This document shows, piece after piece, positions 15,501 through 53,129 of a stretch of 64,000 bases of DNA. The notes beneath the pieces were generated by a model that was not told where the DNA came from, did no database searches, and worked only from the letters and a program-made list of their open reading frames with translations. Source of the DNA: Torpedo marmorata. Lineage: Eukaryota. The stretch is from positions 30,876,001 through 30,940,000 of the forward strand of contig OZ360243.1 in the NCBI GenBank assembly GCA_977017645.1. The letters run 5' to 3'. The stretch's first letter is position 1; each line of letters starts with the position of its first letter. A program made the position numbers and the translations under genes.

Positions 15501-16088
15501 TGCCATGATAAAACCTTATGCGCCTTTTCACCTAACTCATAATATCTTTGTTTTGTTCTTACTATCAACTTTTCGATCTTACGTGTTTGCAATAAATTAT
15601 AATGTAATTTCCTCCTTACTAAACGATTTCTCTTAAGGATAGACTTATTTCTCTGTAAATCCTTTTCCATAAATTCAATCTCCTTCTCTAGTTTTTCTTC
15701 TTCTTTCAAATAATCTTTTTTTATCTTTGCTGAAAAGCTTATTATTAAACCTCTTAGATAAGCTTTCAGAGCCTCCCATACCATAAATTTATCATCTACC
15801 GAATTGTTATTTACTCTTAAAAATTCCTGAATTTCTCGTCTCATATATTCACAAAAATCCTTTCTTTTCAATAAAAAAGAATCAAATCTCCAGTTATATA
15901 TAGTTTTTTCTTTCTCTGGGATTACACGTCATTAATAAAGGTGAATGATCTGAAATTATTCTTGCTTTATAAGATATCTGTGTTATTCTTTCTTGAAGTT
16001 GTGAAGATAATAGAAATAAATCTATCCTAGAAAAAGAATTATGTCTAAATGAATAAAATGAATAATCTTTCTCTCTTGGTTTCAATTT
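12567..16088 (-). mobile_element. L1 LINE, 5'-truncated, AT-rich
   Basis: Poly(A) tail; TSD of about 18 bp ttctctgctgtattcttt (12549-12566, 16089-16106). Confidence 0.95.
12845..15871 (-). CDS. L1 ORF2p (RT and C-terminal Cys domain; endonuclease truncated)
   Basis: KSPGDDG, YRPISLLN, DAEKAFD, TRQGCPLSP, FADD, CFRC..H..WSC in a 1008-aa open frame. Confidence 0.9.
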   Translation of the reverse strand: MKRKDFCEYMRREIQEFLRVNNNSVDDKFMVWEALKAYLRGLIISFSAKIKKDYLKEEEKLEKEIEFMEKDLQRNKSILKRNRLVRRKLHYNLLQTRKIEKLIVRTKQRYYELGEKAHKVLSWQLKKEQVSKTINAIRKRNTGEVTYKPQEINESFKEYYQNLYRSEIDQDDMKINRFLSKITLPKLNVQSKYSLDLPFTMREVTEAISTLKSGKSPGDDGFPVEFYKEFKDLLIPLYMEVLNQVMETHLLPKTFLNAIITVIPKKDRDVLKTESYRPISLLNVDYKIMAKILANRLAKYLPNLIHSDQAGFIKNRYSKDNIARLISLINVYKKKQDLPLVVTLDAEKAFDRVEWNFLFKVLEKFGFGDNFINWIKTIYKEPTAKVVTNGQISQKFLLSRSTRQGCPLSPALFVLVIEPLAEMIREDINIMGIKVGREEHKISLFADDVLIYMIKSVTSLQQLAIILTEYGEISGYKINSDKSEILALSQGDYTRCKEVTDFKWTTESIKYLGVKVDTKLENLYKLNYIPFFMKIKKDLELWKDLPITLMGRVNCIKMNVFPRIQYLFQSIPYGIPNKFFKDLKFIIRKFLWKGKLARVSIDKLTWNYEMGGLQLPNFQHYYKVAQLKFINEFFDLNKSSAWINIELNNMGETHKEDIIYKWNSKLLLLKKKKTPIIKHLLEIWSQVDKEIGQKGLISLNTPIYQNPLLPFSMDNQLLKLWFLKGIKTLKDCFEAGRFITFQRLKEKFNILDNTMLVYFQVKAFLIERLGNELIVPRQNELELLITKVNVNKFISQMYKLFQRKMSKVGVHKSRLKWELDLNVNIDENHWKDLCKLSMIKVINVRYRLVQYNFFHQLYLTPKKLKKFNPALSDMCFRCKTEIGSFVHCTWSCPKIQDFWLKVKNFLERIFNVEVAMDPMLFLFGDIKKFSIRNRLNMYQVEFLRIVLAVSKKCIAITWKSDVDLNLERWHAELRSCIPLEKITYNLRNKYHSFLKIWGPYMRTMGLIL

Positions 16089-20340: not shown

Positions 20341-23173
20341 TTTTTTTTTTTTTTTAAATATTTTATTTAAAATTTTTAAATCACAAAATACATAAAATAG
20401 AATATAAAATTATCAAATTATTTGTGATACATTTTCACCCCCCCTCCCTCCCTTCCCCTCCCCAACCCTCCCAACCCCACTAATCTAATAAAAAATAAAA
20501 ATAGAAAATAAAAATAGAAAAAGAAGAAGAAAAAGAAAAAGATAGAGTAAGGGGAATGCCAATCTATAAACTAATTCTATTATGGAGGTCAAGTATGCCA
20601 GTAGATCCGATATCCAGAGATCTTCAAATCCTTAAACCAACAGCTTTCATATATGGGCTCCAAATTTTTAAGAAGAAATGATATTTATTACGTAAATTAT
20701 AAGTAATTTTTTCAAGTGGTATACACGAACGAAGTTCTGCATGCCATCTGTAAGAGCCGTAGGCTCAGTAACTTACCTTGCTGCGGCGCTCCGACGCCTC
20801 GTCGGCTTGTGGAGCGCTCGCGTTGTCCGTTGGGCCGTCCTCGGCCCGTTCTGTGCTCTGCGCATGCGCTGGAGTGCCGACGGGCGCATGCGCAGTTTGG
20901 AGTGACGTCATTGTGCGCGGTGCAGTCTGGGAAATGTAGTATGCGCGGTGGAGGGTGCGCAGTGTTATAGAAGCGACGGAGCATGCGCGAATCGTAGAGA
21001 AAAGGAAAGGAATAAGATGTTAGGAGGGTGAGTGAAATCTCCATATCTTTATTGACCGTTTTACAGCGTTTTATATCGTTTTATAACGTCTTATACATCG
21101 TTTTGGAATTGTTTAAAGAATCATTTAAAGAAACTCATCATACATCGTTTACAAGAACTGTTTATATTAAAGTCATTGAAGATTACTGCAAGTCACGTGT
21201 GTAAATAAAGATTTTTGAACATATTGGACTTTGTTGGTAAATTAATTAAAACGCGTCAAAGACAAGTATCTCAATTAGCCTCCAGGTGACTATTGTTGGA
21301 TCGAAGTCACCATAATACCATCTTTCTAATCCTAAATCAGATTTCCAAGTAATAGCGATGCATTTCTTTGAAACAGCTGAAGCAATTTGTAAAAATTCTA
21401 TTTGATACATATTTAATTTCATCTTAATACTAAATTTTCTAATATCTCCAAACAAAAATATCATAGGATCCATTGGAAATGTAATCTTAAATACTTTATC
21501 TAAGAAATTTTTAACTTTCAACCAAAAATCATAAACTTTTGGACAAAACCATGTAGAATGTACAAAAGACCCTTCCTCTTTATTACATCTAAAACATAAA
21601 CCTGATAGTGTCGGATTAAATTTCTTTAATTTTTTTTAGGTGTTAAATATAATTGATGAAAAAAATTGTATTGTACTAATCTATATCTAACATTAATAAT
21701 CTTCGTCATACTTAATTTACATAATTCTTTCCAATGATTTTCATCTATTCTTACATTCAAATCTAATTCCCATTTTAATCTTGATTTATGCAATCCTACT
21801 TTAGGCATTTTCCTCTGAAACAATTTATACATTTGAGAAATAAATTTATTAACATCTCCATTAGTAACTAATAATTCTAATTCATTTTGTCTTGGTAAAA
21901 TCAAAGCATAACCTAATTTCTCAATCAGAAAAGCTCTAATTTGATAATAAGCAAAAAGTGTATTATCTAATATATTAAATTTATCTTTCATTCTTTGAAA
22001 AGTAATAAATTTCCCAGCTTCAAAACAATCATTAATCTTCTTAATTCCTTTTTGAAACCAAATTTTAAATAATTGATTATTAATAGTAAATGGAATAAGT
22101 CCATTTTGATATAAAGGCATCCTTGAAGAAATCAATCCTTTTCCTCCTATTTCCTTATCCGTCTTATTCCATATTTCTAACAAATGTTTAAAAATAGGTG
22201 AATTTTTCTTTCTTGTTGATATTAATTTAGAATCCCATTTATAAATAATTTCTTCTTTGGAATCTTCTCCGATATTATTTAATTCTATTTTAATCCAAGC
22301 AGAAGATTCAGTTGAATCAAAAAATTCATTAACAAATTTTAGTTGAGCTGCTTTATAATAATTTTGGAAATTAGGAAGTTGTAAACCACCCATTTCATAA
22401 TTTCAAGTTAATTTGTCCATACCTACTCTTGCTAACTTTCCTTTCCATAAAAAATTTCTAATAATTGAATTTAAATCTTTAAAAAATTTGAGGAATTCCA
22501 TAAGGAATTGATTGAAAAAGATATTGAATTCTTGGAAAAACATTCATTTTAATACAATTTACTCTTCCCATTAAAGTTATAGGTAAATCTTTCCAATTTT
22601 CTAAATCTTTCTTTATTTTCACAAATAATGGTAGATAATTTAATTTGTATAAATTAGCCAATTTTGTATCAACCCTTATTCCCAAATATTTAATTCCTTC
22701 CTTTGCCCATTTAAATTGTGTAATTTCTTTACATCTACTATAATCCCCTTGTGATAATGCCATAATTTCACTTTTATCAGAATTAATTTTATATCCAGAT
22801 ATTTCCCCATATTCTCTCAATAACACAGACAATTGTACTAAGGATGTAATAGATTTTGTCATATATATCAATACATCATCTGCAAACAAACTAATTTGAT
22901 GTTCTTCCATTCCAACTTTAATACCAACTATTTTAGGATCTTTTCTAACTAATTCTGCCAAAGGTTCTATTGCCAAAATAAATAATGCTGGTGACAAAGG
23001 ACATCCTTGTCTAGTAGATCTAGTCAGGGGAAATTTTGAAGAAATTTGTCCATTTGTAACTACTTTAGCAGATGGTTCTTTATATATAGTTTTAATCCAA
23101 TTAATAAATGTATTTCCAAAACCAAATTTCTCCAATACCTTAAATAAAAAATTCCACTCTAATCTATCAAAAG
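20341..23173 (-). mobile_element. L1 LINE, 5'-truncated, with solo LTR insertion
   Basis: ORF2 fragments; poly(A); TSD aagcaaacct (20331-20340, 23174-23183). Confidence 0.93.
20749..21317 (+). mobile_element. Solo LTR of the BEL/Pao family found at 46435-52330
   Basis: tgtaagagccgtagg...caccataata; 5-bp TSD ccatc. Confidence 0.92.
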
Positions 23174-23338
23174 AAGCAAACCTATTCTTAAAGAGATTCA
23201 ACCAATATTTTTGTCTTGGAGGGGTTCAACCCTTTTAAACACCCAGGCAAGTAGGAAAGTATTTATTATTCCCCTGACTTGTATCATATAGGGGATAAAA
23301 AAAAGCTTCGGCTTCATCAGGAGGTGATCTGATCAGAA

Positions 23339-26300
23339 TCAGAATTTATTGTCATGAACAAGTCATGAAATTCGGTGTTTTGCGGCAGTATCATAGTGCA
23401 ATTAACATTCATATTAACCATCTTACGACATTACTATAAAAAATTATAAACAATAGTGCACAAAAAGTAAGGCAGAGTCTTTGGTTCATTGATTATTCAG
23501 GAATCTGATGGCAGCGGGGAAGAAGCTGTCCTTGTGCCGTTGAGTGCTCGTCTTCCCAATGGAAGCAGAGTGAAGAGGGCATGGCCTGGGTGGTGGGGGT
23601 CTTTGAGGATAGAGGCTGCTTTTTTAAGACACCGCCTCATGTAGATGACCTCGATGGAGTGAAGTTTGTGCCTGTGATGTCACAGGCCGAGTTAACAACC
23701 CTCTGGAGTTTACTCTTGTCCTGGGAGTTGGCGCCTCCATACCAGGCAGTGATGCAACCAGCCAGAATGCTCTCCACGGTACACCTGTAGATGTTTACGA
23801 GAGTCTTTGGTGACATACCGAATCTCCGCAGACACCTCACAAAGTATAGCCGCTGACGAGCCTTCTTTGTGATTGCATCAACGTGGATGCTCACTTCTAA
23901 AGTAATTACAAATGGACAAATTTCTTCAAGATTTCCCCTGACTAGATCTTCTTTGGCGATAGAACCTTTGGCAGAATTAGTTAGAAAAGATCCTAAAATA
24001 GTTGGTATTAAAGTTGAATGGAAGAACATAAAATTAGTTTGTTTGCAGATGATGTATTGATATAAATGACAAAATCTATTACATCTTTAGTACAATTGTC
24101 TGCGTTATTGAGAGAATATGGGGAAATATCTGGATATAAAATTAACTCTGATAAAAGTGAAATTATGGCATTATCACAAGGGGATTATAGTAAGTGTAAA
24201 GAAATTACACAATTTAAATGGGCAAAAGAAGGAATTAAATATTTGGGAATAAAGATTGATACAAAATTGGCTCATTTATATAAATTAAATTATTTACCAT
24301 TATTTGTGAAAATAAAAAAGGATTTAGACAATTGGAAGGATTTACCTATAACTTTAATGGGAAGGGTAAATTGTATTAAAATGAATGTTTTTCCAAGAAT
24401 TCAATATCTTTTCCAATCAATTCCTTATGAAATTCCTCAAAAAAATTTTTAAGATTTAAATTCAATTATTAGAACATTTTTATGGAAAGGAAAGTTAGCA
24501 AGAGTAGGTATAGAAAAATTAACTTGGAATTTTGAAATGGGTGGTTTACAACTTCCTAATTTCCAAAATTATTATAAAGCAGCTCAATTAAAATTTGTTA
24601 ATGAACTTTTTGATCCAACTAAATCTTCTGCTTGGATTAAAATAGAATTAAATAATATAGGAGAAGATTCCAAAGAAGAAATTATTTATAAATGGGATTC
24701 TAAATTAATATCAACAAGAAAGAAAAATTCTCCTATCCTTAAACATTTGTTAGAAATATGGAATAAGACTGATAAGGAAATAGGAGGAAAAGGAATGATT
24801 TCTCCAAGGATGCCTTTATATCACAATGAACTTATTCCATTTACTATTAATAATCAATTATTAAAAATTTGGTTTCAAAAAGGAATTAAGAAAATAAATG
24901 ATTGTTTTGAAGCTGGGAAATTTATTACTTTTCAAAGAATGAAAGATAAATTCAATATATTGGATAATACACTTTTTGCTTATTATCAAATTAGAGCATT
25001 TTTGATTGAGAAATTAGGTTATAGTTTGATTTTACCAAGACAGAATGAATTAGAATTATTAGTTACTGAAGGAGATGTAAATAAATTTATTTCTCAAATG
25101 TATAAATTGTTCCAGAGGAAAACTTCTAAAGTAGGAATTCATAAATCAAGATTAAAATGGGAATTAGATTTGAATGTAACAATAGATGAAAATCATTGGA
25201 AAGAATTATGTAAATTAAGTATGACGAAGATTATTAATGTTAGATATAGATTAGTACAATACAATTTTTTTCATCAATTATATTTAACACCTAAAAAATT
25301 AAAGAAATTTAATCCGACATTATCAGGTTTATGTTTTAGATGTAATAAAGAGGAAGGTTTTTTTGTACATTTGCATGGTTTTGTCCAAAAGTTTATGATT
25401 TTTGGTTGAAAGTTGAAATTTTTTTAGATAAAGTATTTAAGATTACATTTCCAATGGATGCTATGATATTTTTGTTTGGAGATATTAGAAAATTTAGTAC
25501 TAAAATGAAATTAAATATGTATCAAATAGAATTTTTGCGAATTGCTTTAGCTGTTTCAAAGAAATGTATTGCTATTACTTGGAAATCTGATTTTGATTTA
25601 GGGTTAGAAAGATGTTATGCAGAACTTCGTTCGTGTATACCACTTGAAAAAATTACCTATAATTTACGTAATAAATATCATTTCTTTTTAAAAATTTGGA
25701 GCCCATATATGAAAGTTGTTGGTTTAAGGATTTGAAGATCTCTGGACATCGGATCTACTGGCATACCTGACCTCCATAATAGAATTAGTTTATAGATGTA
25801 CGTTTTTAGATTGGCATTCTCCTTACTCTATCTTTTCTTTCTTTTTTTTTCCTTTCTTTACTTTTATTTTATATTTTTATTTTTATTAGATTAGTGGGGT
25901 TGGGAGGGTTGGGGAGGAGAGGGAGGGAGGGGGGTGAAAATGTATCACAAATATTTTGATAATTTCATATTTTATTTTATGTATCCTGTGATTTAAATTT
26001 TTAAATAAAATATTTAAAAAAACAAAAAACGTGGATGCTCCAGGACAGATCCTCGGAGATGTTGATACCCAGGAATTTGGAGTTCTTGACCCTCTCCACG
26101 ACTGAGCCCTCGATGAGGACTGGGTCGTATTCCCCTGACTTCCTCCTGAAGTCCACAATCATCTCCTTGGTTTTGCTGACGTTGAGCTCAAGATTGTTGC
26201 CATTACACCATTCAACGAGCTGATCTATCTCCCTCCTGTACGTTTCCTCATTGCCGTTTGTGATTCTGCCGACAACTGTGGTGTCATCGGCAAACTTGTA

Positions 26301-34888: not shown

Positions 34889-35242
34889 ATTTGTTATGCA
34901 TCTTTATCTTTGTTATTGATATGCCTATCAATTAGCACTCAAGAGACTATGAGAGGGTTAACCATAGGCTTTAATACACATAAAACAGACCAACAGTAGA
35001 CCTGCAGATCTCAACCGGACTGTGGGCGGAGCAGTGGCACACAGGCCTTTATTCAGTTGAGAAAAGGGGAGGGATTACCTGGACACCCAAAGGAGGGGAG
35101 AGGAGTCGCCGGGACAGACAGCAGTACATACAATACACAAACAGTGGTTTACCACATTCACCCCTCCTTTTAAAAGAGTCCAGCGGGGTGAAGTGGCCAC
35201 AATACAATCGCTACAGGAATTCAAAATACTTACAGTCATAAT

Positions 35243-37040
35243 CTACAGGTCAAGGCGATCCGGTGGTTTGGCTCGCCTTTGTGACCTGCGCAGTACCCTG
35301 GGTGCGGGTTGTGGTGCAGGGGGTACCCTGGGTGCAGGTTGTGGTGCAGGGGAAGATGGCAAGGCCGTCGCCTCCTCCTGTGGTGCTGGGTGAGATGGCA
35401 GGATTGTGGGTTCCATCGAGGGTGCCTGGTCTGACGTTGTAGAAGAGGGAATAGGGAGAGGCCGGGGCGCCAGGTCCCGAATTGAGACCATGTCCTCTCT
35501 CCCATCCGGGAAGACCACGTAGGCGTACTGCGGGTTAGCGTGCGCTAACTGCAACCTCTGGACCGCGGGCTCATATTTGCTGCTCCGGAGGTGGTTGCGG
35601 AGCAGCACCGGCCCCGGAGACGTCAGCCAGGCAGGCAGGGCGGTTCCGGTGTTCGACCTCCTGGAGAAGGAGAAAAATCTCTCATGGGGCGTTACATTGG
35701 TAGCTGTGCACAGTAAGGACCGTATCGAATGGAGGGCTTCGGGGAGAACATCTTGCCAGCGGGAAACCGGCAGTCCCCTGGACTTGAGAGCCAGGAGCGC
35801 CGCCTTCCAGACAGTGGCGTTCTCCCTTTCCACCTGTCCATTACCTCGGGGGTTGTATGCGGTGGTCCTACTAGTGGCGATGCCCCGGGTCAGCAGGAAC
35901 TGGCGCAGCTCCTCACTCATAAAAGCTGATCCCCGGTCGCTATGAATGTAGTTCGGGAAGCCGAACAGCGTAAATACCTGGCGAAGAGCTTTTATGGTTG
36001 AGGCAGCCGAAGTGTCGGGGCAGGGATTGGCGAAGGGGAACCGCGAGTACTCGTCAATAATGTTCAGAAAGTACACATTGCGGTTCGTGGAGGGAAGGGG
36101 CCCCTTGAAGTCAATGCTGAGACGTTCAAAGGGGCGAGTGGCTTTGATCAGCTGTGCCTTGTCGGGGCGGTAGAACTGGGGTTTGCACTCCGCGCAAACC
36201 CGGCAACTGCTGATCATTGTCCTGACCTCTTCCAGGGAGTATGGCAGGTTCTGTGACTTCACGAAGTGAAAGAGCCTGGTAATTCCTGGGTGGCATAGGT
36301 CGTCATGTAGGGCGTGTAATCGGTCGACCTGCGCGCTGGCGCATGATCCCCGGGATAGAGCATCGGAGGGCTCATTGAGCTTCCCGGGCCGGTACATGAT
36401 GTCGTATTTGTAGGTGGAGAGCTCTATTCTCCACCTCATGATCTTGTCATTTTTGATCTTACCCCGCTGCTGATTGTTGAACATGAATGCCACAGAGCGT
36501 TGATCTGTCAGCAGGGTAAAATGCTTACCGGCGGGATCGTGCCTCCAATGCCTGATGGCCTCCACTATGGCCTGGGCTTCCTTCTCCACCGCTGAGTGCC
36601 GAATTTCGGGGCCCTGAAGGGTTCGAGAGAAAAATGCCACCGGCCTTCCCGCCTGGTTGAGGGTAGCAGCCAGCGCGAAGTCCGATGCGTCACTCTCCAC
36701 CTGGAAAGGTGTCTCCTCATCCACTGCGTGCATTGTTGCTCGCGCAATGTCCCCTTTTATAAGGTCGAACGCCTTACGTGCCTCCGAAGCAAGGGGAAAT
36801 GCAGTGGATTTCACAAGGGGTCGGGCCTTATCCGCATAATTTGGGACCCATTGGGCATAATAGGAAAAGAACCCGAGGCATCGTTTAAGGGCTCTGGGAT
36901 TGGTGGGGAGCGGAAGTTCCAGCAGGGGCCGCATGCGTTCGGGGTCTGGTCCAATTACCCCGTTCTCGACCACATACCCCAAAATAGCGAGGCGAGTGGT
37001 ACCAAACACGCATTTTTCTTTGTTATACGTGAGGTTTAGC
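35243..37040 (-). CDS. Gypsy RT C-terminus, RNase H and integrase (after frameshift at ~37035)
   Basis: SDASDF RNase H; H..HPG..C..C zinc finger; IDFKG / SDRG / VER DDE core; no chromodomain. Confidence 0.9.
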
Positions 37041-39116
37041 CACCTGCAGGAACCTCCGGAGGTTGTTGTCATGGTCCTGACGATCATAACCACAGATGGT
37101 AATGTCGTCAAGATATGGGAAAGTGGCTTTAAGTTTGTAATGGTCCACAATCCTGTCCATCTCCCGCTGAAAAACAGAAACACCATTAGTAACACCAAAC
37201 GGAAGGCGCAGGAATTGGAACAGCCTGCCATCTGCCTCGAACGCGGTGTATGAACGGTCCTCCCGACGGATAGGGAGCTGGTGATATGCCGATTTCAAGT
37301 CGATGGTGGAAAAGAGACGGTATTGGGCAATTTGGTTCACCATCTCCGCTATCCGTGGTAGCGGGTATGCATCTAGTAGCGTAAACCTGTTAATGGTTTG
37401 GCTGTAGTCCACCACCATTCTGCTCTTGGCCCCTTTTACAACAACCACCTGGGCTCTCCAGGGACTATTACTCTTCTCTATAATCCCTTCCTGTAGCAAT
37501 CTCTGTACCTCCGTCTTGATAAATGCTCTGTCCTCGGCACTGTAACGCCTGCTTTTAGTTGCCACAGGCCTACAGTCCGGGGTCAGGTTCGCAAACAATG
37601 ACGGAGGCGAGATCTTAAGGGTGGAGAGACCACAGGTGGTTTCGGGCGTGCTATCCAGAAACTGGTGGTTGACTACAGTGATCGCGGGGAGAGGACCGTC
37701 ATACCGCATTGTAACGCTCTGCAAATGGCTTTGAAAATCCAAACCCAGTAACACCGGCGCACACAAACGGTTCATGACAAACAAGGAAAATTGCCGGTAC
37801 TCAGTCCCTTGTACCACAATGTTCGCCACACACGCCCCCCGGATGTCTGTTGTGTGGGACCCCGACGCCATGGCCACCCTCTGGCTTACCGGTACGATCG
37901 TTAGGCCACAGCGTTGAACAGTATCCGGGTGGATAAAGCTCTCAGTGCTGCCAGTGTCGAATAAACACGTTATCTTGTGTCCCTCGACCAGTATGTCCAT
38001 CATAGATCGTGCCAGCTGGTGGGGAACGTTCTGGTCGAGGGTGATGGATGCCAAAGTTGGGGTGAAGTCGTCTTGGTCCGAGGTCTTTAAAAATGGCCGC
38101 TCCCGTGGGTTGCACGTGTCGCTGGAGGTCTCTGTACAAAATGGCGGCGCCGGAAGTGCAGGAAGTAACGAGGTACGGCTCTGAGATGGCGGCGCCGGAA
38201 GTGCCAGCATGAAAGATGGCCGCTTCCACTCTTCACACGCGGTCGGCGCCGGAAGTGCCAGTCTGCAAGATGGCCGCTCCCATCTCTCGCACGCGGCACT
38301 ACTCGGGCCCGCGCGCGGCTTGGAGCGGCAGGCCTTCGCGAAGTGGCCTTTCTTGCCGCAGTTGGAACAAGTCGCGTCGCGGGCTGGGCAGCGTTTCCTC
38401 GTATGCTTGTCGAGCCCGCAGAAGTAGCACTTCTCGGGCTCGCGATTAACAGCTGCGGCGGTGAGAGTAGCGTCGGTAGCGGTCGGGTCGCGGGTAGCGG
38501 CGGCAACAATTGGGTCGCGGGCCACAGTTGGATCGGTGGGGCTGGGGAACGGGGCGATCCACGCATTAGCCTGGGGGTCCCGCGTCTGCATCGCGTCGGA
38601 GTTCTGCAGCGCGGACTCCAGCGTGCGAACCATCGCCACCGCAGAACGGAGATCGAGGTCAGAGTGCTCCAGCAGTCGCTGACGTACGTATACTGACCTC
38701 ATCCCCATAATAAAGGTGTCCCTCTCCAGCAGATCAACATGTTGTTCTTCAGTCAGCGCTTTACAGGCGCACGCTCGCACTAGGGACTGAATGTCCCTGA
38801 CAAAGTCCACTATTGACTCCCCGGCCCGCTGTTTTCGTAACGATAGTCTATACCTCGCGTAGACCTCATTAACAGGGGTCACATAGATCTTTCTCAGTGC
38901 CTCCATCGCCTCGTCGTACGTCCCACATTTCCAGATGTTTGAATACAACCGAGGGCTTACCCTAGATACTAGGACCTCTAGTTTCTGCTCGTCGCTTTCG
39001 GCTTTGACCTCCTTTGAGAACGATCGGAGGCAGCGTAGCCAGTGTTCGAATGCATGGCCAGCATCAGGAGCTAAAGGGTCGATGTCCAGTCTGTCCGGTC
39101 GGAGGGCGCCTTCCAT
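37023..39116 (-). CDS. Gypsy Gag-protease-RT (first part of a frameshifted polyprotein)
   Basis: Zn knuckle CSNCGKKGHFAKAC; LFDTGS protease; YPLP, LPFG, YLDD RT motifs. Confidence 0.9.
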   Translation of the reverse strand: MEGALRPDRLDIDPLAPDAGHAFEHWLRCLRSFSKEVKAESDEQKLEVLVSRVSPRLYSNIWKCGTYDEAMEALRKIYVTPVNEVYARYRLSLRKQRAGESIVDFVRDIQSLVRACACKALTEEQHVDLLERDTFIMGMRSVYVRQRLLEHSDLDLRSAVAMVRTLESALQNSDAMQTRDPQANAWIAPFPSPTDPTVARDPIVAAATRDPTATDATLTAAAVNREPEKCYFCGLDKHTRKRCPARDATCSNCGKKGHFAKACRSKPRAGPSSAACERWERPSCRLALPAPTACEEWKRPSFMLALPAPPSQSRTSLLPALPAPPFCTETSSDTCNPRERPFLKTSDQDDFTPTLASITLDQNVPHQLARSMMDILVEGHKITCLFDTGSTESFIHPDTVQRCGLTIVPVSQRVAMASGSHTTDIRGACVANIVVQGTEYRQFSLFVMNRLCAPVLLGLDFQSHLQSVTMRYDGPLPAITVVNHQFLDSTPETTCGLSTLKISPPSLFANLTPDCRPVATKSRRYSAEDRAFIKTEVQRLLQEGIIEKSNSPWRAQVVVVKGAKSRMVVDYSQTINRFTLLDAYPLPRIAEMVNQIAQYRLFSTIDLKSAYHQLPIRREDRSYTAFEADGRLFQFLRLPFGVTNGVSVFQREMDRIVDHYKLKATFPYLDDITICGYDRQDHDNNLRRFLQVAKPHV

Positions 39117-39444
39117 AATTTTTCTTATGTGTATTAAATTGATATGCCTATCAATTAGCACTCAAGAGACTATGAGAGGGTTAACGAACCATAGGCTTTA
39201 ATACACATAAAACAGACCAACAGTAGACCTGCAGATCTCGACCGGATTGTGGGCGGAGCAGTGGCACACAGTCCTTTATTCAGTTGAGAAAAGGGGAGGG
39301 ATTACCTGGACACCCAAAGGAGGGGAGAGGAGTCGCCGGGACAGACAGCAGTACATACAATACACAAACAGTGGTTTACCACAGTTATATAAAGTACACT
39401 GTTTGACCAGCTGAGTTTCTCCAGCATTGTATTTTTATTTTAAT

Positions 39445-39880: not shown

Positions 39881-40144
39881 TATGCAACAGGGTTTGAGGG
39901 GTTGGTAGTTATGACAAGTGAGTCTGAAAGGATGGACAGGAAAGGATGGGTAAATGAATGTGGTGGGACTGATGGGCTGATGAATGATATTTTCAATACA
40001 AGGAGTATTATCCTAGAGCCTGGATAAGCACAAGGAATTATGCTATTGTGGTCATTATGGAGACTCAGCTGCGAGAGATACAGGACTGGCAGCTCAACAT
40101 TCCTGGAATTCGGTATTTTAGGTGGGGAAAGAGGTGGAGGGGTT

Positions 40145-42688
40145 TACTTTTTTAAATGCAATAATTACAGTTATACCAAAGAAAGATAGAGATGCATTGA
40201 AAACTGAATCTTATAGACCTATTTCATTATTAAATGTAGATTATAAGATAATGGCAAAGATTTTAGCAAATAGAATGGCTAATTATTTACCAGATTTAAT
40301 TTATGTAGATCAAGCTGGTTTTATTAAAAATAGATATTCAAAAGATAATATAGCTAGATTGATTAGCTTAATTAATTTACAAAAAAAGAAGGAAGATTTA
40401 CCATTAGTTTTAACTTTAGACGCTGAAAAGGCTTATGATAAATTAGAATGGAATTTTTTATTTAAGGTATTGAAGAAATTTGGTTTTGGAAATACATTTA
40501 TTAATTGGATTAAAACTATATATAAAGAACCATCTGCTAAAGTAGTTACGAATGGACACATTTCTTCAAAATTTCCTTTGACTCGATCTACTAGACAAGG
40601 ATGTCCTTTGTCACCAGCATTATTTATTTTGGCAATAGAACCTTTGGCAGAATTAGTTAGAAAATATCCTAAAATAGTTGGTATTAAAGTTGGAATGGAA
40701 GAACATAAAATTAGTTTGTTTGCAGATGATGTATTGATATATATGACAAAATCTATTACATCCTTAGTACAATTATCTGTGTTATTGAGAGAATATGGGG
40801 AAATATCTGGATATAAAATGAATTCTGATAAAAGTGAAATTATGGCATTATCACAAGGGGATTATAGTAGATGTAAAGAAATTACACAATTTAAATGGGC
40901 AAAGGAAGGAATTAAATATTTGGGAATAAGGGTTGATACAAAATTGGCTAATTTATATAAATTAAATTATCTACCATTATTTGTGAAAATAAAGAAAGAT
41001 TTAGAAAATTGGAAAGATTTACCTATAACTTTAATGGGAAGAGTAAATTGTATTAAAATGAATGTCTTTCCAAGAATTCAATATCTTTTTCAATCAATTC
41101 CTTATGGAATTCCTCAAACATTTTTTAAAGATTTAAATTCAATTATTAGAAAATTTTTATGGAAAGGAAAGTTAGCAAGAGGTATGGAAAAATTAACTTG
41201 GAATTATGAAATGGGTGGTTTACAACTTCCTAATTTCCAAAATTATTACAAAGCAGCTTAATTTAAATTTGTTAATGAATTTTTTGATTCAACTGAATCT
41301 TCTTCTTGGATTAAAATAGAGTTAAATAATATAGGAGAAGATTCCAAAGAAGAAATTATTTATAAATGGGATTCTAAATTAATATCAACAAGAAAGAAAA
41401 ATGTGCCTATTTTTAAACATTTGTTAGAAATATGGAATAAGACGGATAAGGAAATAGGAGGAAAAGGACTGATTTCTCCAAGGATGCCTTTATATCAAAA
41501 TTGACTTATTCCATTTACTATTAATAATCAATTATTTAAAATTTGGTTTCAAAAAGGAATTAAGAAGATTAATGATTGTTTTGAAGCTGGGAAATTTATT
41601 ACTTTTCAAAGAATGAAAGATAAATTTAATATATTAGATAATACACTTTTTGCTTATTATCAAATTAGAGCTTTTTTGATTGAGAAATTAGGTTATGCTT
41701 TGATTTTACCAAGACAGAATGAATTAGAATTAATAGTTACTAATGGAGATGTTAATAAATTTATTTCTCAAATGTATAAATTGTTTCAGAGGAAAATGCC
41801 TAAAGCAGGATTGCATAAATCAAGATTAAAATGGGAATTAGATTTGAATGTAAGAATAGATGAAAATCATTGGAAAGAATTATGTAAATTAAGTATGACG
41901 AAGATTATTAATGTTAGATATAGATTAGTACAATATAATTTTTTTCATCAATTATATTTAACACCTAAAAAACTAAAGAAATTTAATCCGACACTATCAG
42001 GTTTATGTTTTAGATGTAATAAAGAGGAAGGGTCTTTTGTACACTCCACATGGTTTTGTCCAAAAGTTTATGATTTTTGGTTGAAAGTTAAAAATTTTTT
42101 AGATAAAGTATTTAAGATTATATTTCCAATGGATCCTATGATATTTTTGTTTGGAGATATTAGAAAATTTAGTATTAAGATGAAATTAAATATGTATCAA
42201 ATAGAATTTTTGCGAATTGCTTTAGCTGTTTCAAAGAAATGCATTGCTATTACTTGGAAATCTGATTTAGATTTAGGATTAGAAAGATGGCATGCAGAAC
42301 TTCGTTCGTGTATACCACTTGAAAAAATTACTTATAATTTACGTAATAGATATCATTTCTTCTTAAAAATTTGGAGCCCATATATGAAAGCTGTTGGTTT
42401 AAGGATTTGAAGATCTCTGGATATCGGATCTACTGGCATACTCGACCTCCATAATAGAATTAGTTTATAGATTGGCATTCCCCTTACTCTATCTTTTTCT
42501 TTCTTTTTCTTCTTCTTTTTCTATTTTTATTTTTTTTTTTTTATTTTTTATTAGATTAGTGGGGTTGGGAGGGTTGGGGAGGGGAGGGAGGGAGGGGGGT
42601 GAAAACGTATCACAAATAATTTGATAATTTTATATTCTATTTTATGTATTTTGTGATTTAAAAATTTTAAATAAAATATTTTTTTTTA
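40145..42688 (+). mobile_element. L1 LINE, 5'-truncated
   Basis: ORF2 pieces 40122-41261 and 41613-42410; 17-bp TSD aaagaggtggaggggtt. Confidence 0.93.
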
Positions 42689-46312: not shown

Positions 46313-47515
46313 CCTATTGTAAGGATACATAAAAATTGCTCTTGTGGCAATGCAATCTTTTGCAGCGCCATGTCCCTTGAAAATTCCATTCCCTAGTTTT
46401 GTTCTTCTGAGACTTGTACAAGTTGGAAGATGACTGTAAGAGCCGTAGGCTCAATAACTTACCTTTGCCGTGGCGCTCCAATGCCTCGTCGGGTTGTGGA
46501 GAGCTCGCGACATTCGTAGGCCGTCCTCGGCCTGTTTGTGCTCTGCGCATGCGCTGGAGTGCCAACGGGCGCATGCGCAGTCTGTAATTGACGTCGTTGT
46601 GCGCGGTGTAGTATGGGAAATGTAGTATGCGCGGTGGAGAGTGCGCAATGGAATAGGAACATGGAGCATGCGCGAATCGGAGAGAATAGGATAAAGATGG
46701 CGACGTAGGAGGGTGAGTGAGATAGCCATATCTTTATTGACCATTTCATACAGCGTTTCATAGACATTTCAAGACGTTTCATCGATAGTTTCATTGAACT
46801 TTTAAACTAGTTATTTTGTGGTTTAAAATCGTTTATTTGAACATCTCAATACAGTCTAAGGAATCATTTAAAGGAACTCATCATACATCGTTTTCAAGAA
46901 CTGTTTGTATTGAAGTCATTGAAGATTACTGCAAGTCACGTGTGTAAATAAAGTTTTTGAACATATTGGACTTTGTTAGTAGTTTAATTGAAACTCGTCA
47001 AAGACAAGTATCTCACTTAGCCTCCAGGTGACTATTGTTAGATCGAAGTCACCATAATATAGTCAATAAAGAGCTGGATGTTTGGAACAGAAAATTGAAG
47101 GAAAGAAGATAGAATAATCTCTCTGTGCTTTGGACTGATATTTAAAATAAAATGGTGGCCATCTTGAAGATGCCTCGAGTTGGGGGCAGTTTGTAATCCA
47201 GATCCATCTGCCATGAATAGCAGCCAGAGAGGGATTTAAAGCTTCAAATCTTATAGTAAAGTATCCTATAAATACGTTGGAGAAACCATTTTTGGAAAAT
47301 CAGTGATATTATTGACGGATGTTGTGGTTGAAACTCGTTTGTGGATAGCAGCACATTACAGTCATTTGAAGTGGTAGGCATAAGTCTGTGGACTCCTTCT
47401 GTGTATCTTTGGCAAGTAAGAACACCGATTGGAATTGCTGCCGCTGGTCCATTGGGGACTGTTGTTTTGGCTAGTGTTGTGTATGCTTGAAGGACAGAGG
47501 AACAAGACGAGTAAA

Positions 47516-49300
47516 ATGGCCGCAGCAGCCTCTGATACAGCAACCGCTGATGTTGCTGTTGAGGACCAACGTATTGAAGACATGAAGATTGCGGATATTA
47601 AAGAAGAATTGAAGCGACTGAAAAAGGACATAAGTGGAAATAAAAAGTTTCTTATCGCAAGATTGAAGCTGGCAAAGGATGAAGAGGCAGCTTCATTAGA
47701 TGAACAAGAAGATAACTTGGAAATGGCTAAAATTGTGTCACCAAATGATGAAGAAAATAAAGAGGTTGAAGATGCAAAGGATATACAATTCGAATTGGAT
47801 AAAGAGGTAAGTATGAAGACAACATATGAACTGCAGGACGAAATACAAGCAAGTGACAGTGTCTCAAATGCTGAAAGCAGGAGAAGCAAAAGAACTTCTG
47901 GTTCGAGCTCCAGAGTTTCTCGTACTTCAAGTTCTGCATCGTCACGTACAAAGATTGATGTTAAATTGGCCGGTTTTCTTGCACAACAAAAAATGCTTAA
48001 GGATAAATATATTTTAGAACAAGAGGAGGAGCAGCTAAGACAAAAGGAGGAGCAGCTAAAGGAGCAGCTAAGACAAAATGAGAAGCAGCTAATGGAGCAG
48101 CTAAGACAAGAGAAGGAGCAGCTAAGGCAGAGAAAAGAACAGCAGGAGCTGGAAGCAAACATTGCTATTGCCAAGGCAGAAAAGAAAGCAATAGAAGGCT
48201 CAATAGTATCTGGCGCTCGAAGTAAATTATCTAAAGTGTCTGATAATAAAAGGTCATATTTTAAAAAAGAGTCACAGGAAAAGAAACCAACCAAAAGGGT
48301 AGTTATTTTAGAATCAAGGATACAAGATTTGCAAATACAAGGATAAATCTTTCAAGAGCATATTGGTAACGAGTCACATGTACCAATGGAAACATCTGAA
48401 AGCAAAGCTGCGTCTTGGGTTCGGTCGAACGAAGCAGCTTCTTTGTTATTTGAGTCAAGCATCAGAAATATGGAAGAAACTACACCAGTGAGGTTTCCAG
48501 ATACATTGCATGCAACAAGAGACGGTGAACAGAGCAATGTATTGTCATCCAAGGAAAGACAAAATGAAATTGCTGCATCATTGTTTCAGTTACAGTCTCT
48601 CTCTTCTTTACCCAAGAAAGAGATACAAACTTTTGATGGTGATCCACTTCAGTATCAATCATTTATGAGATCTTTCAAACGCAATATTGAAGATAAATGT
48701 CAAGATCGTGATGAATGTCTTTATTATTTGGAAATGTTCACAAAGGGACATCCAAAAGAACTGGTAAAGAATTGTAAACAAATGTCTTCAGAAAGAGGAT
48801 TAGACAAAGCTAAGGCTTTACTGGAACAATATTTTGGCAACAAGCATCGAATTGTTTTAGCTTATTTGGATAAAGCTCTTAAATGGACATCAATAAAACA
48901 AAATGATGTAAAGGCTCTGCAAGAATATACTTTGTTTTTAAGAGGATGTTGTAATGCTATGGAAGATATCGATAATATTCGTGAGCTTGAAGTGCATAGT
49001 AATATGCGAATCATCTTAGAAAAATTACCTTACAAGTTATGGGATAGATAGAGAAATTTGGCTTGTGATTTACAAGTAAATTACGGTCGAAAAGTTACCT
49101 TAAAGGATTTGGTAAATTTTCTTGAATGACAGGTGTACGTTGAAACAGATCCACTATTTGGAAATACCAGAGATAATTCAATGGGCAAAGATGTAAGGAA
49201 GTCTAATTCACAGCCTAGTCCGAAATTAAAAAGGAGTACTTTTGCTACTAATGTGTCAGTTATAAGTAAAGAAAAGGACAAAGTAAATAAGAAAAGGAAA
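47516..49300 (+). pseudogene. SAP-domain N-terminus plus BEL Gag (in-frame stops at ~48344, 49049, 49127; frameshift at ~49300)
   Basis: SAP motif 47573-47665; EQLRQ repeats; FDGDPLQY...LYYLEMFTKG BEL Gag signature; ORF pieces share one frame. Confidence 0.82.
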
Positions 49301-49302
49301 GT

Positions 49303-51318
49303 TTGCCTGATGAAAAGAGTTGTTTGTTCTGTAAAGGTGGACATACTTTGGAAATGTGTTTACGATTGGAAAAGAAGGAACATAAGGAGAAGATCGCTTT
49401 CTTAAAGGAAAATGGAATATGTTTTAGCTGTCTGTGTAAAGGGCACATCAGTAAAAACTGCGAAAAGCGAATTAATTGTAACATATGCAATTTGAAACAT
49501 CCTAGAATTTTGCATATCCATAACAGAAACAAGGAATTGGAAAAGGAGCAAACAGAAAGAAAGGAAACAACAGAAAATAATGTTATAACCTCGGTTCAGA
49601 CAAGTGGTCTTACCGGGGCCGGTGTGGATAACTGCAAACTTTCGATAGTGCCTGTACAAGTCAAGACCAAGAAAGGGGATGCAATAGTAAAAACATATGC
49701 ATTTCTAGACCCAGGCAGCACTGCATCTTTTTGCACGGAAGGACTAATGAATAAACTTAATATTCAAGGAAGAAGATCAAGAATTATGTTAAAAACCATG
49801 GGACAAGAAAAGGTCGTTGAAACTAGCATTGTTTCAGGCTTAGAGGTTGCTGGATTATATGACAAAAAATTTTGTGATCTTCCAAGTTTATATACTCAGA
49901 AGACTATGCCTGTACATGAAGGAAATATTCCTCATCAAAAGGATATCCATCATTTAGCTTATCTGTGGAAGGTTTATTTACCTGAAATTAATTCTGAGAT
50001 AGAAATGATGATTGGTTCAGATGTGCCAAAGGTTTTGGAACCGAAAGAAGTAATACAGTGTAAAAGGAATGGACCTTACGCTATTAGAACCAAGTTTGGT
50101 TGGACAATCAATGGACCATTGGAAAGAAATAATGATATTGCTCAGGAACAGTTAGCAATAAATATTAATAGAATTTCGGTTGTGAAAGTTGAAGAGTTAA
50201 GCGAAGAGCAAAAAACCGTGAATAAGAAAATCACTTTTGAAGAAAAGAAAACAGATCAATGTGAAAATAAATCAAGGGTATTTAAAACAACATTGAAGGA
50301 ATTATTTTTACCAAAAATGGATGAAAGTGAAGTATTAGAAGATGTTGCAAATAATACTATTGATTGTTCATGTGTAATCAAATCAGATACAGGAATAAAA
50401 CAAGTGACTGAAAACAAATCTGAATGTAGATTTTGTAGTTCAGAGATTACAATAGACAAAGCTAATGAAGAAATATTGCAATGTGATGTAAAACTGGAGA
50501 ACGCGGAAAATTGTGCTGATGGAATAAAGAATAATGTGAATGATAATTTAATGCAATTGAATTCAGAGAACAAAATGTTGAAAGGGGAATTGGAAATATT
50601 AGATAATCATGAAAACAGTAAACAGAAAGATTTAATTGTAAGTAAAACTCGCAAAGTCAGAAAGCGGAAGAAAAGAATAACTGCTGAAGAAATGAATACA
50701 GTTATTGAGGAAAGAGATTCAGCATTATCAAAATGTAAAAGGTTGGAGGAAGAGATTAATGTTTTGAAAGAGAACAAGTTATTGGTTAATAACACAAAAC
50801 AGTTGACTTTAAAAACCAATCAAGAATGTAAATTGAATGTTCAACAATTAACAATGCAGAAAGAATGTGATATTGCATTGCAGAAATGTAACAAGCAAGA
50901 TGAAGAAATTAAAAAATTTCAAGTTTGCCGCAGCAGGATTAACAATGGAAATATCAATGTATCACATGATATTTTGACTTCAGATCAAATTATTAATTTC
51001 TCAGAAAGAACTGAGACTGAATTGAAAGTTGCAAAATTGGATTTGGAATTGCAGGAAAGAGCAATAGAAACCAGAGTGGTTAAACAGACCTGTTTAAAAT
51101 CGAAAGGATCAAATAAATATTCAAATTCTAGTTCTAAGAGTTTAAATTCTTCACACGAGAAGTGGAATGCTGAAGAAAGGAATAAAGTGAAACGACATGC
51201 TGAAGAAGTGCCTCGTGTTAAATTCAAAAGGAAAACTGTATCTATTTTGTCTGAGGAAGATTTGAGGTTTACTGGTCGACGTTTTAACTCAAAGATTATG
51301 GAGATAAAAGAACTTTAA
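49303..51318 (+). CDS. BEL Zn knuckles, aspartic protease and MIPOL1-like coiled coil
   Basis: CLFC..H..C, CFSC..GH..C, CNIC..H..H; YAFLDPGS protease; RITAEEMNTVIEERDSALSKCKRLEEE; 671 open codons. Confidence 0.8.
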   Translation: MPDEKSCLFCKGGHTLEMCLRLEKKEHKEKIAFLKENGICFSCLCKGHISKNCEKRINCNICNLKHPRILHIHNRNKELEKEQTERKETTENNVITSVQTSGLTGAGVDNCKLSIVPVQVKTKKGDAIVKTYAFLDPGSTASFCTEGLMNKLNIQGRRSRIMLKTMGQEKVVETSIVSGLEVAGLYDKKFCDLPSLYTQKTMPVHEGNIPHQKDIHHLAYLWKVYLPEINSEIEMMIGSDVPKVLEPKEVIQCKRNGPYAIRTKFGWTINGPLERNNDIAQEQLAININRISVVKVEELSEEQKTVNKKITFEEKKTDQCENKSRVFKTTLKELFLPKMDESEVLEDVANNTIDCSCVIKSDTGIKQVTENKSECRFCSSEITIDKANEEILQCDVKLENAENCADGIKNNVNDNLMQLNSENKMLKGELEILDNHENSKQKDLIVSKTRKVRKRKKRITAEEMNTVIEERDSALSKCKRLEEEINVLKENKLLVNNTKQLTLKTNQECKLNVQQLTMQKECDIALQKCNKQDEEIKKFQVCRSRINNGNINVSHDILTSDQIINFSERTETELKVAKLDLELQERAIETRVVKQTCLKSKGSNKYSNSSSKSLNSSHEKWNAEERNKVKRHAEEVPRVKFKRKTVSILSEEDLRFTGRRFNSKIMEIKEL

Positions 51319-51319
51319 A

Positions 51320-51501
51320 GAGACATTGTGATTATTATGGATAATTCAACTTCAAGAAACTCCTGGTTACTTGGAAAAATTATTGAGACTTTTCAAGACA
51401 AAAGGGGACTTGTGCGTCAAGTGTGAATTAAAACTAAGTCTGGTTTTCTAAATAGACCTATTAACAAGGTTTGTCTTTTGTTGGAGACGGAGGAACTTTG
51501 A
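51320..51501 (+). pseudogene. Vestigial BEL integrase C-terminus (DUF5641-like)
   Basis: DIVIIMDNSTSRNSWLLGKIIETFQDKRGLVRQV*IKTKSGFLNRPINKVCLL. Confidence 0.8.
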
Positions 51502-53129
51502 TAAATACAAAACTGACTTTATTTGTTGTTGTATACTTCACAGGTTACAGACTTGTTGATTCAGAGTTATGGTAAACTCTAGTTTTATGAAGAAGGAAGA
51601 AAGAAGATTTGTATATTGTTTGAATGTTATAGTTATTGTTATTTATAATTTAGTGTGTAATTATTATTTAAGACATTGTGTCTAATTATAATAATTAGGG
51701 GCCGGTGTAAGAGCCGTAGGCTCAATAACTTACCTTTGCCGCGGCGCTCCAATGCCTCGTCGGGTTGTGGAGAGCTCGCGACATTCGTAGGCCGTCCTCG
51801 GCCTGTTTGTGCTCTGCGCATGCGCTGGAGTGCCGACGGTCGAATGCGCAGTCTGAAATTGACGTCGTTGTGCGCGGTGTAGTATGGGAAATGTAGTATG
51901 CGCGGTGGAGAGTGCGCAATGGAATAGGAACATGGAGCATGCGCGAATCGGAGAGAATAGGATAAAGATGGCGACGTAGGAGGGTGAGTGAGATTGCCAT
52001 ATCTTTATTGACCGTTTCATACAGCGTTTCATAGACATTTCAAGACGTTTCATAGATAGTTTCATTGAATTTTTAAACTAGTTATTTTGTGGTTTAAAAT
52101 CGTTTATTTGAACATCTCAATACAGTCTAAGGAATCATTTAAAGGAACTCATCATACATCGTTTTCAAGAACTGTTTGTATTGAAGTCATTGAAGATTAC
52201 TGCAAGTCACGTGTGTAAATAAAGTTTTTGAACATATTAGACTTTGTTAGTAGTTTAATTGAAACGCGTCAAAGACAAGTATCTCACTTAGCCTCCAGGT
52301 GACTATTGTTGGATCGAAGTCACCATAATAATGACCGTCTGCCCTCAGCTAACTGTTTACTAAAGCGCTGCGGCTTGATCTGGAACCTTTCCATAATGCT
52401 TTATGGATCGCAGAATAGTATCGCTATGCTCAGCAATCTAATGTTGAGGTTATTTAAAAGCTGAATTAAAATGCTGGTTTGAAAAGGAACTTCCCTGGCT
52501 ACTGGCTAACCAACCATTCTTTCACGGGCCTTCTTTGGTACGTAGTTTCAGAAGTCTTTTGAGTACTCTGCTGCCACGGAGCCACCAAATGTTATTGTGG
52601 TCCAGAACATCGCTGCACTGAACATCATTTTCTTCCAAGTAACGTTGGAATACTCTGTGGTTGAGTTCATGAACTCGAATGAAATTTACTGTCAACATCA
52701 GTTTCATACCATAATCAAAATCTAGTGCCTTTCCACAAAGCGCCTGTTGATATATAATGCAATTGATTTTGCTATGCCCGTTGATTTTCGATGGCTATTA
52801 ATTATTCCTATCATTAATATTTTATCCATCGTGTCGCTTGCGCTGTCTGTGGTAACACGTTTAGAGTTTCTCGTTTTAAATCCAGAAGCTGGAATATATT
52901 GTCGACGTTTATTAAAATGTCTGTCTTTGTAACAGTGTAGTTAATAGGATACAGCCCCGCCAGTTTCTTGGTACCTGTATATGAATACAAGCAACTCTAC
53001 CCTGTCAACAATGTTTTACATTCAAAGTAACAAAAAGAGACATAAAAACTTGGGTGTACACTTGTTATTGTGTCAACTGATCATCACCTAAATTTTTGCT
53101 TCCACTGACTGGTAACTGCCTAAACCAGC

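Follow-up and report, generated by a model that had tools for sequence, protein, structure and literature searches.

A non-autonomous BEL/Pao family of Torpedo marmorata with BRCA1, MIPOL1 and Elongin A sequence in place of pol, and a probable circular RNA template for its MIPOL1 piece

The element, its family and its helper

The window analysed here, a stretch of 64,000 nucleotides of Torpedo marmorata DNA, contains a BEL/Pao element bounded by two LTRs that differ at 12 positions and by a 5-bp target-site duplication (TSD), as well as a solo LTR (Table 1). TG...CA ends and a tRNA-type primer site are general features of typical LTR elements; here, and in the helper family described below, the LTR termini are TG...TA. 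In profile scans of the window copy SAP (E 3.8e-5; 23.6 bits against a cut-off of 23.9), the Gag DUF1759 core (E 4e-6) and the integrase tail DUF5641 (E 3.7e-5) are matched, the protease-like Asp_protease_2 match is weak (E 0.073), and the translation shows three Cys/His knuckles together with a D-P-G protease motif; RT, RNase H and the integrase core have no family match in the five frames scanned. A preliminary description of this DNA had called these domains and absences correctly, together with the intact LTRs, the TSD, the related solo LTR and a non-BEL stretch of about 370 aa, which measures 368 codons (50212-51315). The integrase C-terminal vestige it named is present as sequence and is untranslated, since the stop upstream of it is common to 38/38 copies, 17 of 39 copies ending 13 codons sooner. 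The three stops (48344, 49049 and 49127) and the gag frameshift (near 49290) that it reported are private to the window copy, the stops being absent from 34/34, 36/36 and 34/36 other copies, respectively. The frame from 49291 to 51315 is open, and the window copy itself is a dead member of its non-autonomous BEL/Pao family.

Table 1. Features of the window copy and the solo LTR, in window coordinates
Feature	Position	Strand	Remarks
5' target-site duplication ATGAC	46430..46434	+	
5' LTR, TG...TA, 625 bp	46435..47059	+	
Putative splice-donor-like motif, ~20 nt 5' of primer segment	46712..46718	+	common to most helper and sister LTRs examined
Predicted self-primer segment, complementary to primer site	46731..46741	+	pair probability 0.89
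Primer-binding site without tRNA-type TGG start, then hypervariable spacer	47062..47072	+	
Gag: SAP, coiled coil, DUF1759 core	47516..49290	+	3 stops and frame change private to window copy
Three zinc knuckles and aspartic protease	49291..50211	+	92-95% identity to helper copies
BRCA1 piece, two spliced host exons	50207..50635	+	host G000:C61
MIPOL1 late exons E(part)-F-G, spliced	50629..50933	+	host G000:C40
Back-splice junction, exon G end / exon A start	50933..50934	+	
MIPOL1 early exons A(part)-B(part)	50934..51078	+	in-frame deletion of 81 nt
Elongin A piece, remnants of two host exons	51078..51296	+	BC-box region missing; host G000:C41
Stop of the single reading frame, family-wide	51316..51318	+	38/38 copies
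Integrase C-terminal vestige (untranslated), 3' leader, purine tract	51320..51705	+	common to helper
3' LTR, 625 bp	51706..52330	+	
3' target-site duplication ATGAC	52331..52335	+	
Solo LTR, related subfamily, TSD CCATC	20749..21317	+	

Exact 24-mer counts give at least 16,223 copies of the cargo-bearing family and 963 of a pol-bearing helper family (controls 0), an excess of approximately 17-fold, and a single-copy structure or a secondary insertion is ruled out by these multi-copy data. Both LTRs and an exact TSD are present in 12 of 39 copies; copy L034 has the same TSD letters as the window copy and different flanks. Helper copies align to the window copy as far as 50210-50211 (18/20) and again from 51320 (16/20), and both helper frames scanned hold the single Gag-PR-RT-RNase H (Peptidase_A17)-IN frame that the window element lacks. 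The two families are alike in LTR type, purine tract, primer site and 5-bp TSD, the LTRs of cargo copies are 96-98% identical to those of young helpers, and LTR and backbone have been exchanged between the cargo family and several helper subfamilies. The element is a non-autonomous, Gag-PR-only BEL/Pao derivative whose helper has LTRs of the same type, which bears out the mobile lineage and the same-LTR partner anticipated in the preliminary description. Two read runs, X4 and X5, whose origin from RNA is a guess, cover the entire element deeply.

The primer site pairs with a segment of the element's own LTR, a pairing that covaries across lineages in at least five sequence types and is also found in the helper; 0 of 240 interior control windows reach 11 nt. 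Minus-strand synthesis is probably primed by the element's own RNA. That RNA may not start exactly at this segment, as the donor-like site upstream of it suggests. No account of self-priming in BEL/Pao was found in the passages searched, which came from literature other than subscription journals and Repbase. The preliminary description overlooked both this primer site and the back-splice junction described below.

Host-derived cargo and the MIPOL1 junction

In frame behind Gag-protease, about 3.2 kb of pol (RT, RNase H and integrase) has been exchanged for 1.1 kb of intronless BRCA1, MIPOL1 and Elongin A (ELOA) pieces. A Pfam scan of the cargo in the window copy gave no match, and the genes were identified through a homologue search and a sister lineage; the three sources lie on three host contigs, where the exons map with AG/GT ends, and the copies have no introns. 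The preliminary description was right that host-derived sequence is carried, and neither of the two findings it named as fatal, a single copy whose segments have their own TSDs or a lack of host homologs, was made. Its two host modules are to be revised: the cargo comes from three genes, not one, and SAP was not captured by this lineage, being carried by both helper frames scanned (as to an older origin, no relative of it was found at E 0.01 among 791 candidates, which is weak evidence). Dispersed copies have common switch points, and the cargo has one origin. The sister lineage, with 91-98% identity to the host exons, records an early state of the capture and retains the start of the Elongin_A domain and the BC-box region; the successful lineage, at 70-92% identity, has lost the BC-box region and parts of all three pieces, and independent lineages have lost different parts. 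A second Elongin A gene (C25) was rejected as donor at 68-78% identity, against 83-98% for C41. Homology at the two inner joints is 2 nt at BRCA1/MIPOL1 and about 6 nt at MIPOL1/ELOA, where the source of an 18-nt stretch was sought and none found. The shift and two small gaps with which the BRCA1/MIPOL1 joint is parsed in 37-38 of 40 sequences are alignment overlap, because the frame is open across it.

Within the MIPOL1 piece the last base of a late exon (G) is followed directly by the first base of an exon (A) that lies 206 kb upstream in the host, with zero extra bases in 29/29 sister loci and in the window copy; the junction sequence has 250 exact genome matches (control 0). An exact back-splice junction of this kind makes it probable that the MIPOL1 template was a circular RNA. 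The reversed order could instead have come from linear RNA, through trans-splicing, through exon repetition, or because RT switched from one MIPOL1 mRNA to another, or inside a single one, and fell on splice sites by chance, and the linear mRNA does offer 3 homologous nucleotides where G meets A, the captured arc is shorter than one lap, and the remaining cargo joints are ordinary switches. Of the in-frame backward switches that have 3-nt homology, however, the fraction running exactly from exon end to exon start is 5e-4, the cargo is restricted to circle-resident exons and has no poly(A), and an exonic Mipol1 circle is catalogued in mouse (PMC9888537); we regard the linear origin as possible at rather low odds. 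Tandem duplication of host MIPOL1 is rejected, as probes for exon H and for the rest of exon C match one place each in the genome. The A-G circle measures 780 nt and contains no stops. Against a circle, the 5-kb introns on either side share only a weak inverted repeat (188 nt, 69%). Longer protein matches suggesting more than one lap are coiled-coil over-extension, DNA mapping giving one arc, and with less than one lap captured rolling-circle copying is not demonstrated. The lineage has made many other jumps besides the G/A joint, which counts against the circle.

The open frame and the character of selection

The frame of the family, which the preliminary description had proposed to check across copies, is open despite about 20% divergence, and none of the 358 cargo codons aligned to the host is a stop, where 10.6 stops are expected, a result reached in 0 of 20,000 simulations. 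Variants present in at least five copies include 1 stop per 79 synonymous changes, against 64 per 248 among singletons (p 2.5e-6); for the cargo alone the depletion in shared variants is not significant (p 0.18). Widely shared rearrangements are all in frame, and a few frameshifts are common to 2-6 copies. The dN/dS comparison that had also been proposed separates two parts of the frame: knuckles and protease give 0.26-0.43 against other lineages, and the cargo gives, between host and window copy, 0.70 (0.51-1.06) or 1.02 (0.72-1.54) depending on transition weight. Since an open frame goes with a cargo dN/dS of 0.7-1.0, selection acts on translation and not on a host-like protein, and the cargo has likely been kept open to serve as translated filler and not as a functional protein.

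Two other roles for the cargo bear on these data. It might be a working protein module in the manner of transducing retroviruses (a tail of charged coiled coil, or an Elongin A BC-box in the sister lineage), aiding particle assembly or recruiting host factors and accounting for the 17-fold excess; the frame held open over such divergence, a shared-variant pN/pS of 0.76 (p 0.16) that leaves room for weak protein constraint, dN/dS of 0.46-0.86 in the BRCA1 and ELOA parts, and the Elongin_A domain start kept in sister copies would all fit. All cargo intervals nevertheless include 1, bar one sister comparison at one weighting, and the successful lineage dropped the BC-box region while independent lineages deleted different parts, so that we consider this role quite unlikely; the transducing-retrovirus analogy of the preliminary description does not extend to function, given the near-neutral amino-acid evolution of the cargo. 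Alternatively the cargo would act as RNA, either as a host-like shield against silencing by small RNAs or as a spacer that sets the packaging length, the open frame being a by-product; three essential or conserved host genes, all in sense orientation, and the very high copy number might suggest this. A successful lineage that has drifted so far from host identity speaks against this, as does the fact that a by-product would not hold every widely shared rearrangement in frame, and we find it highly improbable.

Proposed model and comparison with known systems

We propose, with a probability of about 0.68, that pol was swapped in frame for spliced BRCA1, back-spliced MIPOL1 and Elongin A through RT template switches, and that the insert persists as filler. 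Host RNAs, one of them likely circular, would have been co-packaged with element RNA, whose minus strand the element's own RNA would prime. RT would have left the element RNA inside early pol and copied BRCA1 mRNA, then about three quarters of the 780-nt MIPOL1 circle across its junction, then ELOA mRNA, before rejoining the element RNA close to the end of integrase, whether in a single round or in several. Master copies would supply their own Gag-protease and take RT and integrase from the helper. The open cargo would bring the stop codon some 1.1 kb nearer the poly(A) signal, and this later stop may shield the RNA from nonsense-mediated decay (NMD) or hold it on ribosomes for packaging; that NMD shielding would be the benefit is an analogy with Rous sarcoma virus (PMC2925335). 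The wider claim is that a BEL/Pao element that primes itself packaged a circular RNA of the host and copied it over its back-splice into DNA, that the copy was joined in frame to BRCA1 and Elongin A pieces, and that the result expanded to more than 1% of the genome under selection for translation and not for its product; we hold this to be reasonably likely.

The route of circular RNA into genomes was left open in the paper on such pseudogenes (PMC4897178), and the present family keeps a back-splice junction within a complete LTR element with its helper, the sister lineage preserving the early state. If the model is true, the family is a fossil that reveals how circRNAs are retrotransposed, and it parasitises another parasite, with host coding sequence serving it as stop-free filler. 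Selection on the open frame being separable from selection on protein, a role of translation or NMD in retrotransposon fitness becomes testable on thousands of natural copies. At least 16,000 BRCA1, MIPOL1 and ELOA fragments in one genome, by our estimate roughly 80-95 Mb, are relevant to annotation, to read mapping and possibly to small-RNA control of the three genes.

Apart from the exchanged pol region, the element resembles its autonomous BEL/Pao (Belpaoviridae) helper in LTR type, purine tract, primer site, 5-bp TSD and a SAP-Gag-protease of 92-95% identity. Acutely transforming retroviruses with gag-onc fusions depend on a helper and carry, where pol would be, a host coding sequence joined in frame downstream of gag. 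The same dependence and the same fusion are seen here, with no sign of selected host protein function, no env, and germ-line amplification as the differences. By title and abstract, nothing relevant to BRCA1 or MIPOL1 as BEL or retrotransposon cargo appeared among the papers listed, subscription journals and Repbase lying outside the scope of the search. Tf1/sushi self-priming (PMC7175516) likewise uses a primer site of 10-16 nt complementary to a segment within the LTR and no tRNA-type site; those elements are Ty3/gypsy and not BEL/Pao, and here a donor-like site lies just 5' of the segment and priming is predicted. In LTR-mediated retrocopies (Tan et al. 2016, PMC5131818), which include maize Bs1 and a two-gene chimera in the Drosophila Pao element BATUMI, spliced host mRNA also replaces part of the internal frame, with several parental genes, sense orientation, common switch points and further non-autonomous copying. 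Bs1 has 1-5 copies, far from the number found here, and in our family one piece is back-spliced and a near-neutral cargo is fused to a constrained Gag-protease; the word 'circular' does not occur in the main text of that paper. The mouse circRFWD2 pseudogenes (Dong et al. 2016, PMC4897178), 33 high-confidence, non-coding copies whose mechanism was termed mysterious, share with the present family a non-colinear exon junction, circle-resident exons only, the lack of poly(A), an LTR association and multiple copies. Here, by contrast, the junction is in frame in a complete LTR element whose helper is known, and its placement, with sequence from another host RNA on either side, suggests that templates were switched inside the particle.

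A pol-less element and its helper family

A sequence check bore out the LTR pair, the TSD and the related solo LTR of the preliminary description (table). Pfam matched DUF1759 and DUF5641 in the element, SAP just under the cut-off (E 3.8e-5) and the protease weakly (E 0.073); none of the five element frames scanned has a match to RT, RNase H or the integrase core. SAP had been read as a captured module; both helper frames scanned carry SAP, together with DUF1759, RT, Peptidase_A17, integrase and DUF5641, and SAP is therefore part of the backbone.

Features of the element and the surrounding window
Feature	Position	Strand	Remarks
BEL/Pao element	46435-52330	+	LTRs 625 bp, 12 mismatches between the pair; TSD ATGAC; ends TG...TA
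Splice-donor-like site	46712		Upstream of the primer segment
Donor-like site and leader	46712-47515		Six ATGs in the leader, behind the donor-like site
Segment complementary to the primer site	46731-46741		11 nt
Gag coiled coil	48010-48140		Repeat of 21-nt period; in-frame expansion and contraction among copies
Related solo LTR	20749-21317		Own TSD; interrupts an AT-rich LINE-like copy
AT-rich LINE-like copies	12848-15928, 21326-23225, 24016-25797, 40122-42596		RT domain
Ty3/gypsy-type element	34960-39383	minus	197-nt repeats 98% identical; matches Gag, protease, RT, RNase H, integrase

That the element belongs to a multi-copy family is confirmed by 16,223 exact occurrences of a cargo-joint 24-mer in the 6.2 Gb assembly (control 0), and the autonomous partner is found in a pol-bearing helper family, whose pol 24-mer has 963 exact occurrences and was seen in each of the 15 helper loci inspected, both counts being lower bounds. 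With the non-BEL stretch as query there were 2,611 candidates, of which 40 were scored and all 40 proved 98-100% identical, and 12 of 39 fetched copies have two LTRs with an exact TSD (LTR identity 93-99%). From the first matches on contig C1, 20 were examined, leaving aside four repeats of one tandem array; 11 of these span no less than 98% of the internal region, and the LTR pairs of three are 99.7% identical, so the family moved recently. A tandem array on this contig (L226, G000:C1:1498244-1518123) holds five cargo matches at 4,964-bp spacing, with adjoining units 99.4% identical. Single contigs from runs of two other organisms cover 49941-50870 with 20 differences, crossing two joints (run X2, organism B), and 50506-50902 (run X6, organism E); the lineage is thus not restricted to the Torpedo marmorata assembly.

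Frames of more than 2,000 codons surround 11 of 150 BEL RNase H matches, and 18 of 20 fetched helper loci match the window up to 50210-50211, with 16 of the 20 resuming from 51320. The window's LTR has a best identity of 86% among 16 helper LTRs compared; in two copies that bear the cargo, LTR identity to young helpers is 96-98%, and one cargo-bearing copy has a third LTR type. On these comparisons, recombination between the cargo lineage and several helper subfamilies is continuing, which would imply co-packaging.

Host-derived cargo and the reversed MIPOL1 junction

In a protein homologue search the 368-codon stretch matches MIPOL1 (66%, E 1e-32; 11 of 11 matches), and more of the cargo is retained in a sister lineage whose backbone is older (about 68-80% identical to the window, with 88-92% between paired LTRs), which reveals two further genes, BRCA1 (E 8e-51; 14 of 15 matches so named) and Elongin A (PF06881 in four of five frames; PDB 8oev chain M, E 1e-54). 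The claim of host-derived sequence is upheld, as all cargo pieces map to host exons on C61 (BRCA1), C40 (MIPOL1) and C41 (Elongin A) in spliced form. The fullest sister copies hold four BRCA1, six MIPOL1 and five ELOA exons, mostly 91-98% identical to the host, and the window holds two, five and two, at 70-92%; the proteins nearest to the host genes are those of rays, Narcine best. Gene order, the back-splice, a 3-nt indel and a 9-nt indel are common to both lineages, and the cargo is therefore of one origin.

At the MIPOL1/ELOA joint, L113 and L118 contain an 18-nt stretch for which a search of host regions gave no source. Another Elongin A-like gene with introns (G000:C25:175318134-175336908) is 68-78% identical to the captured exons, and four element copies lie in introns of the donor gene MIPOL1 (G000:C40, L152-L183), three sense and one antisense. 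In a public Narcine BRCA1 isoform model (P0013), residues 1-180 stand in place of the RING domain and resemble retrotransposon Gag, probably an annotation artefact.

The BRCA1 and ELOA exons follow host order; those of MIPOL1 run E(part)-F-G and then A-B-C(start), host exon A lying 206 kb upstream of exon G. Exon G ends at a GT donor and exon A begins after an AG acceptor in the host, and the exact join, with zero bases lost or added, is shared by the window and all 29 of the 29 sister loci, its sister form having 250 exact occurrences in the genome. The predicted A-G circle is 780 nt and stop-free, and the element carries no MIPOL1 exon from outside it. Counting against a circle are 3 nt of homology at the G/A joint and a captured arc of less than one lap. 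In its favour, when the distinct in-frame backward jumps that linear mRNA allows at 3 nt or more of homology are counted, only 3 of 5,785 run from exon end to exon start. A reversed junction at exact splice sites and the restriction to exons inside the circle are the criteria in the available part of Dong et al. (PMC4897178), and an exonic mouse Mipol1 circle, exons not specified, is on record (PMC9888537). We put the probability that the MIPOL1 piece derives from a circular RNA, as judged from sequence, at about 0.8.

A reading frame held open

The three gag stops and the frame change described earlier are present in the window copy and are not family-wide, the stops recurring in 0 of 34, 0 of 36 and 2 of 36 copies and 34 copies differing at the frame change. 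At 51316, 38 of 38 copies have a stop. The family therefore has a single frame of about 1,270 codons. A stop 13 codons earlier is present in 17 of 39 copies, and of the 63 remaining stop positions 48 are seen in one copy each. Rearrangements common to most copies are all in frame, singleton indels being in frame in 13 of 70 cases in the sister lineage and 0 of 7 in the window lineage; a few frameshifts are common to 2-6 copies.

Aligned with the host over 358 codons, the window cargo differs by 184 substitutions and contains 0 stops where 10.6 are expected, an outcome reached in 0 of 20,000 simulations. Its dN/dS is 0.70 (0.51-1.06) unweighted and 1.02 (0.72-1.54) at transition weight 3; that of knuckles plus protease against other lineages is 0.26-0.43. 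For variants present in five or more of 63 copies, pN/pS is 0.48 in knuckles-protease (p 0.003), 0.65 in the Gag core (p 0.11), 0.76 in the cargo (p 0.16) and 1.7 in the N-terminus, and stops show an overall 20-fold depletion (p 2.5e-6) that does not reach significance for the cargo taken alone (p 0.18). The pattern reads as selection that holds the frame, cargo residues being hardly selected, and the backbone signal may be partly inherited from the helper via recombination.

Priming, proposed mechanism and precedents

The site after the 5' LTR lacks a TGG start and is complementary to a segment within that LTR (table); among interior control windows 0 of 240 reach 11 nt and 2 reach 10 nt. The predicted pairing probability is 0.89 for an RNA start at 46729 or 46731 and 0.49 for 46732. 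In L139, L144, L191 (16 nt) and L234, as well as in L146 of a distant family, this LTR position still pairs with the site although the letters differ; of the 18 helper loci, L131 lacks such a match because its LTR boundary was placed too far inward. Among 26 copies the sequence behind the site takes 13 forms, of which one reflects a parsing failure (control: mean 2.4, maximum 5 forms, 78 windows), and would fit recopying of the site from its primer each cycle. Tf1 likewise primes from its first 11 bases (PMC7175516, available part), and BEL self-priming is not described in the available parts of PMC3118150, PMC3601003, PMC5443660 and PMC6934838. The donor-like site has no role in building the primer here, and given its presence the RNA may begin elsewhere than at the primer segment; with the leader ATGs it suggests a spliced gag mRNA alongside unspliced genome RNA. 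Integrated right ends in L130-L149 vary, lying 0, 2 or about 6 nt from the start of the primer site, and are mostly TA, not CA.

We propose that the RT of an ancestral BEL element most likely switched to a co-packaged BRCA1 mRNA, a MIPOL1 circle and an ELOA mRNA, and then back, following the template-switch model in the available part of Tan et al. (PMC5131818). The product would have retained Gag-protease and all cis signals, and helper enzymes would have copied it. As the sister copies' distance from the host about equals the expectation from LTR age, capture would have shortly preceded the sister burst. One descendant, its cargo shortened by in-frame deletions, would have shifted to the present helper backbone and come to outnumber the helper about 17 to 1. 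The cargo likely acts as filler, holding the distance between stop and poly(A) signal at about 900 nt instead of 2,000 nt, long-3' UTR retroviral RNAs being NMD targets unless shielded (PMC2925335, available part); this NMD-related step is the weakest of the mechanism.

Neither the element's whole combination, nor an in-frame back-splice inside a mobile element, nor a comparable copy number, nor frame-only selection was found in the literature searched. Every component has precedent, in multi-gene LTR chimeras, LTR-flanked circRNA pseudogenes and Ty3/gypsy self-priming.
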